Assembly: GCA_964291395.2 (NCBI GenBank)
Contig: OZ219858.1
Location: 672,001-736,000, forward strand
Source of the DNA: Alphaproteobacteria bacterium
Lineage (GTDB): Bacteria; Pseudomonadota; Alphaproteobacteria; UBA2966
Length of the DNA stretch: 64,000 bases
Reading direction: 5' to 3'
Shown: positions 17,413 through 20,089 of the stretch, one piece after another
How the letters are laid out: the number at the start of each line of letters is the position of its first letter
Position numbering within the stretch: the first letter of the stretch is position 1
Translations under genes and position numbers: made by a program
Notes under the pieces: generated by a model
The model's input: the letters and a program-made list of their open reading frames with translations, nothing else
What the model was told of the DNA's origin: nothing
Databases searched by the model: none

Positions 17413-17565
17413 GCGCACCGGCGCAAGCGCCGCCGCCGCGCGCTGCCCTCTTCCACGGCCCGACCACAACACAAGCGGTCAAATGCCGCATCGTCCCGCC
17501 GGAGGCCGTGCTAGACTGAGGTGGTTGAAAGCGGGGCGGCGGCGTTGAACCCGGATGGTCGGAAC

Positions 17566-18240
17566 ATGAGGGAATCGGAACGGATCTCGTACGAGGACAT
17601 GCGCCGCCAGATGATGGAGATCATCTCTCTCCATGCCTTGGTGGCGAGCGAAGTCACCGGCAGGCACGAGCTCGATGAAGTCGTCATGGGTGCGATGGCC
17701 GACGTGCCCCGTCACGAGTTCGTTCCCGTCGAGATGCGCGACACCGCCTATGTGGACTCACCGCTTCCCATCGGGCACGGCAAGACCATCTCGCAGCCGT
17801 TCATGTGCGCATTGATGACCGATCTCCTCGAACTCGAGCCCGATGACAAGGTGCTGGAAGTGGGCACGGGGTTGGGCTATGGCGCAGCCGTCCTGTCGCG
17901 GATCGCCGGAGGGGTGTATTCGGTGGAAATTCTCAGCGAACTCGCCGAAGAAGCTCGGCGCCGCCTGCGCGCGCAGAATTTCGACGTCACCACGCGAATC
18001 GGCGACGGCGGCTATGGTTGGGCAGACGAAGCGCCTTTCGACAAGATCATCGTCACTGCGGCACCGGAGGTCGTGCCGCCGGTTCTGCTCGAACAACTGA
18101 AAGCGGGCGGACGTATGGTTGTCCCGACAGGCGCCGAGGACGCTCAAATGCTCGCGTTGGTAGAGAAGGACATCGACGGGACTATCGATATCACCGAAAT
18201 CATGGCTGTCGTCTTTGCACCGCTCGTCTTGAGTCATTGA
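17566..18240 (+). CDS. pcm: Protein-L-isoaspartate(D-aspartate) O-methyltransferase
   Basis: VPRHEFVP, TISQPFM, VLEVGTGLGY.AAVL, APFDKIIVTAA. Confidence 0.92.
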   Translation: MRESERISYEDMRRQMMEIISLHALVASEVTGRHELDEVVMGAMADVPRHEFVPVEMRDTAYVDSPLPIGHGKTISQPFMCALMTDLLELEPDDKVLEVGTGLGYGAAVLSRIAGGVYSVEILSELAEEARRRLRAQNFDVTTRIGDGGYGWADEAPFDKIIVTAAPEVVPPVLLEQLKAGGRMVVPTGAEDAQMLALVEKDIDGTIDITEIMAVVFAPLVLSH

Positions 18241-18521
18241 ACTTCTTCAGTCGTTGGGCGCGGACGCCGTTGTCGGAAGTGCCCAAAGCCTCACGTGAGC
18301 GCTCTCGGAGCGCTTGATTGCGGGAGTCAGATCGGAAATGCAGATCCACGGTGCGCTGCCGCCGGGGGCTTATGACCGACTCGAGCTCGCCCGGTGAGGC
18401 GGATTTCGCCCGCCGATCAAAAAATCACGATTTTTCGCTCGTCCCGAGAAAGAATTTTCGTGCGGGATTGAAAGTCGAATGCCTGCACAAGCCATTTGGA
18501 ATCAAGGGATTGGAACAATCC

Positions 18522-18570
18522 TGTGGATAATCCAGGGATAATAATTGGATAATAAGACCAAATATCCCCA
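18522..18570. promoter_or_regulatory. DnaA-box array: one perfect box, two degenerate boxes at 11-bp phasing, and one inverted degenerate box
   Basis: TGTGGATAA at 18522-18530; GGATAAT core starts at 18525, 18536 and 18547; ATATCCCCA at 18562-18570; AT-rich context. Confidence 0.6.
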
Positions 18571-18599
18571 AGAAATTTGCTATGGAATTACTTTTTCGA

Positions 18600-18627
18600 T
18601 TGCAGTAACTCGAAAGATATCTAGAAT
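18600..18627 (+). promoter_or_regulatory. Sigma70-type promoter for candidate ncRNA-1
   Basis: TTGCAG-N16-TAGAAT. Confidence 0.55.
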
Positions 18628-18632
18628 ATGAG

Positions 18633-18825
18633 GTGGATCTTGGAGCCTTCGGGTTGCTTGATCCGGGACCGCAAAGCTTTCGGGTGGCGCGGTCCAGGAG
18701 AGGCGTCAGGAGTACTCTTCGGAGTACGCGCAAAGACCCCGCGTCTGAGCACTTGACGCCTCTTCGCATTTTCGGATCTTTTACTTGAGATCATGATGTT
18801 GCGGCGGGCAGAGCCCGCCTTTTTC
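18633..18825 (+). ncRNA. Candidate structured ncRNA-1 (~190 nt)
   Basis: GGATC..AGCC-TTCG-GGTT..GATCC; GGACCGC..GCT-TTCG-GGT..GCGGTCC; 10-bp AGAGGCGTCA/TGACGCCTCT enclosing GTACTC-TTCG-GAGTAC; GATCTT/GAGATC hairpin; bounded by a promoter and an intrinsic terminator. Confidence 0.7.
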
Positions 18826-18827
18826 TT
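18803..18827 (+). terminator. Rho-independent terminator of ncRNA-1
   Basis: GGCGGGC-AGA-GCCCGCC-TTTTTCTT. Confidence 0.8.
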
Positions 18828-18877
18828 GCGCGCATTTCAGCGACACGCCTCTTTAGACCGCCGCGCCCCGGCGCCCG

Positions 18878-18970
18878 AACAAAGAAAGACCCGGCGCAAC
18901 TTCATCGGAAGAAGTTGTCACCGGGCCTTCCGGCATCAGAAAACGCACCCGCGTCAATGCACTTGAGCAA
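18878..18970 (-). ncRNA. Candidate small RNA-2 (~90 nt), convergent with ncRNA-1
   Basis: Minus-strand promoter TTGACG-N17-TAGGGA (19004-18976); 3' long hairpin GAAGGCCCGG-TGA-CAACTTC..GAAGTTG-CG-CCGGGTCTTT followed by CTTTGTT; its G-U pairs work only on the minus strand. Confidence 0.55.
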
Positions 18971-19001
18971 TGTTATCCCTACCAATTTGGATATGCCCCG
19001 T

Positions 19002-19048
19002 CAACAATATATTGCGATATTGGCGCTGACATTGGACATATATGGTGT
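19002..19048. promoter_or_regulatory. Tandem NrdR-box-like operators
   Basis: CAACAATATATTGCGA (19002-19017) and TGGACATATATGGTGT (19033-19048) versus consensus acaCwAtATaTwGtgt; 31-bp spacing. Confidence 0.55.
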
Positions 19049-19201
19049 AGAAGAAAGATAGTGCCGCGATGTCGTCCGATCCCGTCCGCCGGGATCCTCG
19101 TCCGCACGGCATTGTGTGAATTGTGCAGAAAGCTCGGGCCGCTTTGCGCGCCGGCGCGGGCGGGAGACCCGGCGCCTGTCGCCGCAATGGAGAGTCGAGT
19201 C

Positions 19202-20089
19202 ATGTTCGAAGGCTTCGAGACCCGCCGCGCGAAGGCCAACGGCGTCGAGATCCACTACCGGAAAGGTGGCGAGGGACAGCCCTTACTGCTGCTGCACGGT
19301 TATCCGCAGACGCACGTCATGTGGCACAAGATCGCGCCCGGTCTCGCGCAGCGGTTCACCGTGGTGGCCTCAGACCTGCGCGGTTACGGCGATTCCGAAA
19401 AGCCGCCCGCGGGCCAGGAAAACGTCGGCTACGCCAAGCGTACGCTGGCCCAGGACCAAGTGGAGCTGATGGCGGGCCTGGGTTTCGACAGCTTCTTTCT
19501 CGTCGGACACGACCGCGGCTCGCGCGTGGCGCATCGCATGGTTCTCGACCATCCCGACCGTGTCGAAAGGGTGGTTATGCTCGATACCATTCCCGTGGAC
19601 ACGGCCTTCGAGAACGTCAATGCTGACCTCGCCACCGCATGGTTTCACTGGTTCTTCATGCGTCGCCCGGAACCGTTTCCGGAGACCATGATCGGCAGCA
19701 ATGTCGAGTTCTACATGCGTCATCTGATGGGATCGTGGAGCGTGATCCCCGACGCTTTCACCGACGAGGCTTGGGCGGAATATCTGCGCTGTTTCGAGAA
19801 GCCCGAGACCATCCACGCGTCCTGCGAGGAATACCGGGCCATCACCCTCGATCTGAAACATCATGCGGCGGACCGCGACAAAAAGATCAAGTGTCCGCTG
19901 CTCGCTCTGTGGGGCGGCAGCCGGCACACGCACCCGGGCTGGTCAACCAATGTCGTCGAGCCACTCTCGGCGTGGCGCGAGCGGTGCGAGGACGTTCGGG
20001 GCCGCCCCCTCGACTGCGGGCATTTTCTGCCCGAGGAAAAGCCCGAAGAGACTCTCCAGGAGATCCTCTCGTTCCTCACGGAGGTATAG
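19202..20089 (+). CDS. Haloacetate/fluoroacetate dehalogenase-like alpha/beta hydrolase
   Basis: HGYPQTHVMWH, GHDRG.RVAHR, FHWFF, CEEYRA, GHFLPEE. Confidence 0.85.
   Translation: MFEGFETRRAKANGVEIHYRKGGEGQPLLLLHGYPQTHVMWHKIAPGLAQRFTVVASDLRGYGDSEKPPAGQENVGYAKRTLAQDQVELMAGLGFDSFFLVGHDRGSRVAHRMVLDHPDRVERVVMLDTIPVDTAFENVNADLATAWFHWFFMRRPEPFPETMIGSNVEFYMRHLMGSWSVIPDAFTDEAWAEYLRCFEKPETIHASCEEYRAITLDLKHHAADRDKKIKCPLLALWGGSRHTHPGWSTNVVEPLSAWRERCEDVRGRPLDCGHFLPEEKPEETLQEILSFLTEV

Follow-up and report, generated by a model that had tools for sequence, protein, structure and literature searches.

The DNA analysed here, hereafter the window, comprises 64,000 nucleotides (nt) of contig OZ219858.1 (positions 672,001 to 736,000 of the forward strand; assembly GCA_964291395.2) from an Alphaproteobacteria bacterium of the UBA2966 lineage, and coordinates without a prefix count from its first letter. 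One 960-nt intergenic gap holds an entire module consisting of DnaA boxes, a promoter, a structured RNA termed RNA-1, an opposing RNA termed RNA-2, and the promoter of the latter, which is overlapped by NrdR boxes. The gap is bounded on the left by a protein-L-isoaspartate methyltransferase-like (pcm-like) open reading frame (ORF) at 17521-18240 and on the right by an alpha/beta-hydrolase ORF with a likely ATG at 19203, both on the + strand and both named from a reading of the translation. RNA-1 and RNA-2 are a real, conserved and apparently undescribed pair of non-coding RNA families with co-evolving complementarity and with DnaA and NrdR motifs at their promoters. Judging from sequence features, both are presumably transcribed.

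Two facing RNA units and their distribution

The two units have the following parts in the window:
18633..18825, + strand: RNA-1, predicted transcript; fold z -5.56, homologous in 5/5 genomes of the genus
18635-18664 and 18666-18695, + strand: two tandem hairpin units of about 31 nt, from the predicted fold
18699..18763, + strand: hp3, a three-way junction of 24 pairs with covariation over 35 sequences
18699-18710 with 18752-18763, + strand: hp3 helix P1, 12 bp
18712-18727, + strand: hp3 helix P2, 6 bp with a UUCG loop
18734-37 with 18743-46, + strand: hp3 helix P3, 4 bp, with the loop CCCGC at 18738-42
18803..18824, + strand: extra intrinsic terminator of RNA-1 with a 7-bp GC stem and T5, limited to some loci (the window and a few others)
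18878..18968, - strand: RNA-2, predicted transcript of about 91 nt with a conserved layout in 31 loci
18878..18927, - strand: RNA-2 terminator, a hairpin (18888-18927) followed by UUUCUUUGUU (18887-18878)

An earlier note on this DNA had described two facing, non-overlapping units and a 16/19 direct repeat at 18738-18756 and 18948-18966. The repeat is found at these coordinates with 84% identity, and the units indeed end apart, the last terminator T-run of RNA-1 stopping at 18824 and the U-run of RNA-2 at 18878. The repeat alone is only modestly above chance, with an estimated 0.04-0.1 such pairs expected in 951 nt, and the repeat search of the stretch also lists other chance-level repeats of similar length; the observation of facing RNA units with a repeat is nevertheless confirmed, and it is strengthened by other genomes.

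A DNA search of 61 related genomes found RNA-1 in eight, including the window's own. RNA-1 or hp3 is present in 5/5 other genomes of the genus and in one of two genomes of a second genus, and there is one weak match in a second family. A strict pattern retrieved six records from the genome collection, all of them metagenome-assembled genomes labelled 'Alphaproteobacteria bacterium', and a pattern for the hp3 5' arm, which is independent of both 19-mers, retrieved 35 metagenome stretches. The 43 loci examined, from genomes and metagenomes, included eight duplicates and thus represent 35 distinct loci (individual loci and genomes are denoted by L and G numbers below). A covariance model of hp3, R1, gave the following counts of matching genomes:
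class, drawn evenly at about one genome per family: 12/151
own order: 7/23
phylum sample, other genomes (outside the class): 0/150
The family thus has a patchy distribution that nonetheless extends across Alphaproteobacteria. A single copy of the module is present in 11 of the 12 matching genomes of the class scan and in all seven of the order, and its flanking genes vary from locus to locus. Across many of these homologous loci, a comparison that the earlier note had proposed as a check, the units, boxes and complementarity are conserved together.

Two observations concern individual loci. One genome (G072) carries two DnaA-box/RNA-1 units, L073 and L083, on different contigs, one with an RNA-2-like site about 450 nt downstream and the other without any within 480 nt. 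In L006 (G004), and also in L013, there are G/C-rich palindromic elements CCTCCCCCCTG.CAGGGGGGAGG with flanking GGTCGGG repeats; those of L006 lie in the spacer between hp3 and RNA-2 and in both flanks, and look like repetitive extragenic palindromic sequences or miniature inverted-repeat transposable elements. The spacer between the RNA genes thus tolerates insertions.

The RNA-1 region (18630-18830, + strand) folds at -97.2 kcal/mol compared to -73.1 +/- 4.3 kcal/mol for shuffled sequences (z -5.56), none of 200 shuffles being as good. In each unit of about 31 nt, a purine-rich internal loop separates the outer stem from a 3-bp inner stem, and the apical loop is UUCG, or YUCG across the 102 distinct units collected, these having been selected by the YUCG loop motif itself. 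In genomes of the genus the promoter anchor and hp3 are 121, 152 or 183 nt apart, consistent with two, three or four units; outside the genus this distance reaches about 500 nt, and between 1 and 14 UUCG-type loops are counted per locus. A loose regular expression for the unit found only scattered coding-like matches elsewhere in the genome. The variable hairpin array suggests, as a model, that RNA-1 could sequester a protein, and the C-rich P3 loop likewise suggests a possible role in base pairing.

The domain hp3, which follows the array, comprises P1, P2, P3 and a 2-bp helix at the junction. In the alignment of 35 sequences 98.1% of cells are paired and four pairs are changed on both sides; such double-sided changes amount to 29 cells versus 11.3 +/- 2.3 in shuffles, with 0/500 shuffles reaching 29, and in slid-register controls only 35-55% of cells pair. 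Invariance of the 5' arm and of parts of P2 is uninformative, because the search pattern had fixed them. hp3 is more stable on the + strand in 31/31 loci. In many loci a T-run directly follows hp3 and gives it the look of a terminator, and the 3' end of RNA-1 may thus lie near 18772, after hp3, instead of at 18825; a terminator scan of the stretch found only 18803-18819.

RNA-2 is likewise structured, its stretch (18975-18865, - strand) folding at -50.8 kcal/mol versus -36.9 +/- 3.5 for shuffles (z -3.94, 0/200 as good), with the 5' domain largely unpaired in the window. The layout is constant in 31 loci: TTGAC(A/G), 31-36 nt, CA(A/G)GUGC, 2-3 nt and GACGCGGG(UCC), then 10-20 variable nt, (C)UCCUGACG, a GC-rich hairpin GGCCCGG...CCGGGCC and a U-rich run. 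The terminator stem has 11 pairs, eight of them with changes in both partners, and reading it on the - strand gives G-U pairs; the terminator region is more stable on that strand in 24/31 loci (means -45.6 vs -38.2 kcal/mol). The structured bodies that the earlier note had proposed on both strands are therefore supported by covariation, in hp3 and in the RNA-2 terminator.

Neither RNA has a conserved ORF among the loci compared. A 42-amino-acid ORF in the window begins with an ATG at 18628 on the + strand, but this ATG directly abuts the -10 element of RNA-1 and is missing in L002-L004, and the 31-nt steps of the hairpin units are no multiple of three, hence the ORF is not regarded as conserved. 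In RNA-2, an AUG found in the bubble between its two half-sites (see below) reads AUU in the window.

At gathering score, Rfam 15 finds only two tRNAs in the window, both elsewhere. The best match in the region is an L20 leader on the terminator with 21.8 bits against a cut-off of 58.7, searches in E-value mode giving otherwise noise, and there are no matches in seven related loci, which include long multi-hairpin forms. The earlier note had not recognised the RNAs as a described family, and no Rfam family reaches its gathering score in the window or in these seven loci.

DnaA and NrdR boxes at the two proposed promoters

The proposed control elements in the window are:
18522..18570: DnaA-box cluster, from a motif search; homologous positions elsewhere hold better boxes
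18522-18530, - strand: perfect DnaA box TTATCCACA, reading TGTGGATAA on the + strand
18533-18541 and 18544-18552: degenerate DnaA boxes, neighbours of the perfect box in the cluster
18562-18570, + strand: forward DnaA box ATATCCCCA, followed by AGAAA
18600..18627, + strand: proposed RNA-1 promoter with -35 TTGCAG (18600-05), a 16-nt spacer and -10 TAGAAT (18622-27)
18976..19004, - strand: proposed RNA-2 promoter with -35 TTGACG (19004-18999), a 17-nt spacer and -10 TAGGGA (18981-18976)
19002..19049: two NrdR boxes (19002-19017 and 19034-19049), 32 bp from start to start, box 1 overlapping the -35 of RNA-2

The box at 18522-18530 is the sole perfect DnaA box within the 64-kb window, and its three neighbours are degenerate, with 2-3 mismatches each; over the whole window, matches with at most one mismatch number 3 versus 4.6 expected. 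Upstream of RNA-1 the general layout starts with two or three inverted DnaA boxes plus a single forward box, (T)TATCCACAAGAAA; these are followed by about 25-30 T-rich nt and then by the -35 (TTGCAG, TTGCGG or TTGTAA) and -10 elements, the distance between the forward box and the -35 being fixed among loci. At least one DnaA box with at most one mismatch lies upstream of hp3 in 40/47 loci and at least two in 30/47, where a calculated 0.2 or so would be expected per 900 nt and the whole-window control is lower; four of the seven loci without a box have less than 235 nt of upstream sequence. The locus thus has the attributes of a DnaA-regulated promoter, namely a box cluster, a fixed position relative to the promoter and conservation in relatives, and DnaA probably binds there. 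That it would activate rather than repress RNA-1 is a guess from the position of the boxes, as they sit upstream of the -35 without overlapping it.

A DnaA-box cluster within an AT-rich stretch might also mark a replication origin or a datA/DARS-like titration site, the RNA-like features then being incidental. This is scarcely credible. The origin marker genes hemE and gidA lie at C3:833-845 kb and the module at 690 kb of the same contig, whose cumulative GC-skew minimum falls at about 820 kb on a shallow plateau; in three closed genomes the module is about 0.46, 0.8 and >1.3 Mb away from hemE, dnaA is not adjacent in any genome checked, and the boxes keep a fixed distance from a promoter. An origin or datA-like site was accordingly rejected, as neither the skew minimum nor the marker genes coincide with the module. 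A plasmid or mobile origin was also discarded, there being no blastn match in PLSDB and the module being mostly single-copy. Outside the window, the match to dnaA itself (G000:C2:173121-174469) is split in two overlapping frames, covering model positions 127-437 and 1-141, which is a frameshift or an assembly error.

On the opposite side of the module, an NrdR-type 16-mer covers part of the RNA-2 -35, and about 31-32 bp further there is a second one; in 11 loci two strict-core matches are 30-31 bp apart. In the window this site scores highest in the whole genome, although the matrix used contains this very site. The passages of PMC12051234 dealing with the NrdR operator describe paired boxes that are separated by a 15-16 bp spacer and often cover the -35. 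The proposed RNA-2 promoter has two palindrome-like boxes of 16 bp with such a spacer. Moreover, the genome encodes NrdR (169 bits, above the cut-off), and its own nrdJ-like gene, a ribonucleotide reductase (RNR) gene, has an NrdR box over an upstream TTGACA in the same layout as at RNA-2. Binding of NrdR at the RNA-2 promoter is therefore likely on sequence grounds. In 30/31 loci a distance of 31-36 nt separates the TTGAC from site B, the complementary region of RNA-2, and this spacing together with the 17-nt spacer and the -10 would place the start of RNA-2 within a few nt of CAAGUG, at about 18968 in the window.

Similar motifs were seen at other sites of the genome. A pair of NrdR-like 16-mers 31 bp apart is located between gidA and hemE, in the probable origin region (G000:C3:836884-836930). 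Upstream of a second RNR gene, a 782-aa frame, there are DnaA-box-like sites TGTGGATGA, TGGATAAC and TGTGGAAAC (G000:C3:444560-444770), so DnaA and NrdR seem to share control of genes for dNTP synthesis too. No NrdR boxes were seen upstream of this second gene (C3:442-444.5 kb), whereas the nrdJ-like gene on C1 has them.

The NrdR boxes could instead serve the hydrolase gene at 19203 or act as a roadblock, in which case the RNA-2 side would be a functionless, decayed duplicate. A promoter-like site on the + strand, TGGACA-18-GATAGT at 19033-19062, overlaps NrdR box 2. In L003 the hydrolase ATG follows box 2 after 13 nt, and so NrdR might also affect this gene in the genus; in L004 the same gene follows after a longer gap. 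A metatranscriptome contig, 19163-19250, begins 40 nt upstream of the hydrolase ATG and continues past the end of the stretch. The gene downstream nonetheless varies among loci, L002 for example having no hydrolase, and the TTGAC of the - strand, its spacing to site B and the covarying - strand terminator are all kept, which makes a decayed RNA-2 very improbable.

Between the pcm-like gene and the DnaA boxes there is also a GC hairpin (18397-18415), followed by an A/T-rich inverted repeat (18404-18451); the region 18395-18451 may be the terminator of the pcm-like gene.

Complementarity between RNA-1 and RNA-2

The sequences involved in the proposed pairing are:
18738..18756, + strand: site A, the 19-mer inside RNA-1, spanning the loop and 3' strand of P3, the junction and the 3' strand of P1
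18932..18941, - strand: RNA-2 block H3, UUCUGAUGCC, complementary to the hp3 P1 5' arm with G-U pairs
18948..18966, - strand: site B, the 5'-terminal region of RNA-2, UCAAGUGC-auu-GACGCGGG, complementary to site A

Opposite RNA-2, the + strand carries a direct but diverged copy of hp3, which has the 5' arm CGTCAGGAG, P3 and the 3' arm, lacks P2 and varies in its spacing. The antisense match of RNA-2 to hp3 hence comprises three blocks with about 28 nt in total. The earlier note had proposed 8+8 bp of pairing with a linker and the 3' strand of a helix in RNA-1. The complementarity does exist, and as two half-sites separated by a bubble, but it extends over both P1 arms and P3 rather than a linker, and within site A only the 5-nt P3 loop is unpaired in RNA-1. 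Site B is present in 31/35 loci, and three of the four loci that lack it have at most 180 nt of downstream sequence. An RNA-2 pattern matched 4/401 genomes of the class, each with hp3 beside it, and reversed-pattern controls matched none.

The alignment of the complementary sites comprises 32/36 loci parsed by a regular expression, the four missed loci having been read by eye. In the 8-nt core 254/256 cells are identical on the + strand, which equals Watson-Crick pairing between the RNAs, and the two exceptions, T/C in L003 and G/A in L029, both keep a G-U pair. The covariation between the two 19-mers, which the earlier note had named as a check, is indeed seen at two columns. First, at the column 5' of CCGCGTC both copies have T in L023/L030 and L076/L084, as well as in L083 and L082 as read by eye, and both have C everywhere else. 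Second, the L007 clade has T in both copies at a column within the core. There are no discordant loci at either column, and joint changes of the two copies have occurred in at least three clades. Where the third block differs, it mostly has a G on the RNA-1 side versus an A on the other copy, which keeps a G-U pair.

The predicted energetics are compatible with pairing, the duplex of hp3 and RNA-2 averaging -55.1 kcal/mol versus -29.3 kcal/mol for shuffled RNA-2. After the cost of opening hp3, the net gain of co-folding is negative in 31/31 loci (mean -13.0, window -12.2); in the predicted co-fold P2 is retained, and intermolecular helices take the place of P1 and P3. The two separate predicted RNAs thus show the conserved, co-varying complementarity that is expected of a sponge pair.

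At least one lineage appears to have a different arrangement. L075 (G023) has no second copy of hp3; instead, as read by eye, a promoter with paired matches to the NrdR-box core lies 20-40 nt beyond hp3 and points into it, and from this layout L075 is a true cis-antisense of hp3. The arrangement in L080 (G163) is similar by eye, with no match to the strict NrdR core pattern, and is probably a second cis-antisense lineage.

A repeat of this kind could also be a feature of the DNA, either two operators of one protein or a product of gene conversion, with RNA pairing being irrelevant. The identity of a direct repeat alone cannot be told apart from the complementarity of convergent RNAs; in addition, site B occupies +1 to +20 of the RNA-2 promoter, the usual place of an operator, and the core is almost invariant. 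Site A, however, lies inside helices with RNA-type covariation. The two copies never share the 2-nt bubble between the half-sites (0/32 loci) while both flanks match, which argues against simple gene conversion, as a tract spanning the repeat would not leave such a pattern. The core differences are compatible with G-U pairs in both cases and those of the third block mostly keep them, and the cis-antisense variant has no second DNA copy at all. An explanation at the DNA level is hence improbable.

A proposed antisense module and its relation to known systems

The reading favoured here, with moderate confidence, is that RNA-1 is a DnaA-controlled structured RNA and RNA-2 its dedicated, NrdR-controlled antagonist; the roles of RNA-2 as antagonist and RNA-1 as effector, and anything concerning the output of RNA-1, are what we infer from the arrangement. 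RNA-1 would be made from a promoter about 30 nt downstream of the DnaA-box cluster and would consist of a variable number of UUCG hairpins and the almost invariant hp3, of which P1 and the adjoining U's would double as the 3' end or terminator of RNA-1. RNA-2 would be made once NrdR leaves the DNA, that is, at low dATP, since the first of the two NrdR boxes covers the TTGAC(A/G) -35. Pairing would nucleate between the P3 loop CCCGC and a GCGGG of RNA-2 and spread into both P1 arms, with the 5' end of RNA-2 engaging P3 and the P1 3' arm and its downstream block engaging the P1 5' arm. P1 and P3 would be replaced by an interrupted intermolecular duplex of about 28 bp, and RNA-1 would be inactivated, restructured or exposed. 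Loss of the hp3 fold may lead to read-through or decay, because P1 would also be the terminator or a 3' protective helix. The module would in this way gate the output of a DnaA-controlled RNA by the supply of dNTPs.

Several observations weigh against this model. A scan for the sigma-70 consensus flagged two other sites, both on the + strand, and neither of the two proposed promoters, which therefore rest on position and conservation. A sponge metatranscriptome (0.05 of the sampled words) and three other RNA runs yielded the contig 19163-19250 as the sole one, outside both RNAs, although contigs cannot show absence. RNA-1 occurs without a detectable RNA-2 in L027, L073 and L077-L079. As for the pairing, the Y position of half-site 2 is a C-A mismatch in 5/25 loci, half-site 2 has a deletion of 1-2 nt in 7/32, and single-sided transitions are moderately wobble-biased, with about 10 compatible versus 4 incompatible events by our own informal count. 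Most paired columns are invariant and hence uninformative either way, and direct DNA repeat identity is formally the same signal as convergent-RNA complementarity. Finally, a motif search of the genome, the nrdJ leaders of the genus and a duplex screen revealed no target or partner of RNA-1.

In the duplex screen, in which RNA-2 and the hp3 3' half were compared with the leaders of nrdJ, the second RNR gene, nrdR and dnaA, no duplex ranked within the 2% tail of 1500 random windows; the strongest one, nrdR with RNA-1, reached a fraction of 0.025 by what is a noisy method. The Shine-Dalgarno and start region of nrdJ (G000:C1:1221420-1221445, CAAGTG..GATGCGGG, CAAGTGGGGGCAAGATGCGGG) shows complementarity to site A and similarity to the 5' end of RNA-2, being one of only four extra genome-wide matches of a relaxed motif. 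The resemblance is not kept in five other genomes of the genus, and nrdJ was rejected as a conserved target. Two further features of nrdJ leaders were observed: GGTTCGGGAGGCG resembles the junction before hp3 and in G001 is merely one strand of a local stem, and the leaders of the genus (L056-L061) have a conserved GCGGTTCGGGAGGCG..AAACGGGGCGC between the NrdR boxes and the start codon, with no Rfam match.

The roles of the two RNAs might also be reversed, with RNA-2 as a small RNA (sRNA) of the NrdR regulon that acts on mRNAs through a 5' seed at low dNTPs, and RNA-1 as its DnaA-controlled sponge. Many sRNAs carry their seed at the 5' end, and the complementary region begins within a few nt of the predicted 5' end of RNA-2; in the window the RNA-2 5' domain is largely unpaired, and the matching site of RNA-1 is mostly buried in helices. 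The copy at site B, on the other hand, retains the hp3 arms and not merely a seed, and at least one lineage, probably two, uses a true cis-antisense of hp3. RNA-1 occurs without RNA-2, whereas the four genomes of 401 matched by the RNA-2 pattern, a small sample, all had hp3 adjoining, and no mRNA site stood out for RNA-2. A reversal of roles is thus considered unlikely, and RNA-2 as the antagonist of RNA-1 remains the preferred reading.

A bolder version of this reading, which is put forward only tentatively, would make the module an RNA logic gate. A DnaA-switched multi-hairpin RNA would sequester an RNA-binding factor, or its hp3 would act on a replication or dNTP function, and it would be cancelled at low dATP by an NrdR-released antisense RNA that unfolds hp3. 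The module would then contain the first non-coding member of an NrdR regulon and a new class of DnaA-controlled RNA, and would have passed in evolution from a cis-antisense to a duplicated trans-antisense. If true, there would be a post-transcriptional layer between replication initiation and dNTP supply in Alphaproteobacteria, and nature would provide a case of an antisense regulator whose gene is a diverged duplicate of its own target. Since the overlapping form survives in at least one related lineage, and probably in two, the route from cis to trans regulation could be studied. Rfam contains neither RNA, and the alignments A1-A3 and the model R1 could seed two new families there; the analysis also defines concrete, testable sites in the promoters, the boxes and the CCCGC and GCGGG loops.

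Searches of the full-text literature, supplements excluded, found no description of a small RNA controlled by NrdR or by DnaA boxes. To our knowledge, NrdR has been described essentially as a repressor of RNR operons and DnaA-dependent transcription for protein genes. The earlier note had interpreted the locus as an RNA/anti-RNA module joining DnaA and NrdR signals. This holds in part: co-conservation, covarying structures, co-varying repeat copies and the lack of an Rfam family speak for it, whereas the pairing geometry differs and the suggested option of an RNA-only toxin-antitoxin pair finds no support.

Among known systems, the sRNA sponges or anti-sRNAs, such as SroC-GcvB, 3'ETS-leuZ-RyhB/RybB and AgvB-GcvB, are similar in that an RNA under its own regulator pairs with another regulatory RNA, which it would neutralise, the two being separate transcripts. 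Here, in contrast, the antagonist adjoins its partner, converges on it and is encoded on a diverged tandem copy of the partner's 3' domain; the pairing would involve both arms of a three-way junction and not a linear seed, and inputs from DnaA and NrdR boxes are a novelty among such pairs.

Convergent cis-antisense pairs include the type I toxin-antitoxin systems txpA/ratA and bsrG/SR4 and the plasmid copy-control RNAs RNAI/RNAII and CopA/CopT. The module shares with them the convergent genes, an antisense RNA directed at a structured 3' or leader domain, a plausible loop-loop nucleation (CCCGC with GCGGG) and, in L075 and probably L080, real overlap. It differs in having no conserved ORF, mostly no overlap and no attached replicon. 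A type I toxin-antitoxin system was rejected on account of the missing ORF, considering the ATG absent from L002-L004, the 31-nt steps and the AUU of RNA-2 in the window.

CsrB/RsmZ-type RNAs carry many hairpins and sequester a protein, and the variable number of near-identical hairpin units in RNA-1 is reminiscent of them. The apical loops are UUCG in RNA-1 and GGA in CsrB/RsmZ. A sponge for a Csr/Rsm protein was rejected, as the 102 units, picked by that very motif, have YUCG loops and CsrA was not found; neither CsrA nor ProQ was found in the genome, which is 98% complete, and Hfq is present.

The promoters, finally, each have a counterpart. The RNA-2 promoter resembles the NrdR operators of RNR promoters, as far as the operator passages of PMC12051234 describe them, in its two 16-bp boxes about three helical turns apart, one of which covers the -35. 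The gene controlled here would be a short non-coding RNA instead of an RNR operon. DnaA-controlled promoters are represented by those of E. coli nrdAB and dnaA and by the Caulobacter DnaA regulon; the RNA-1 promoter is like them in having several DnaA boxes just upstream of the -35, and unlike them in that its product would be a structured non-coding RNA.

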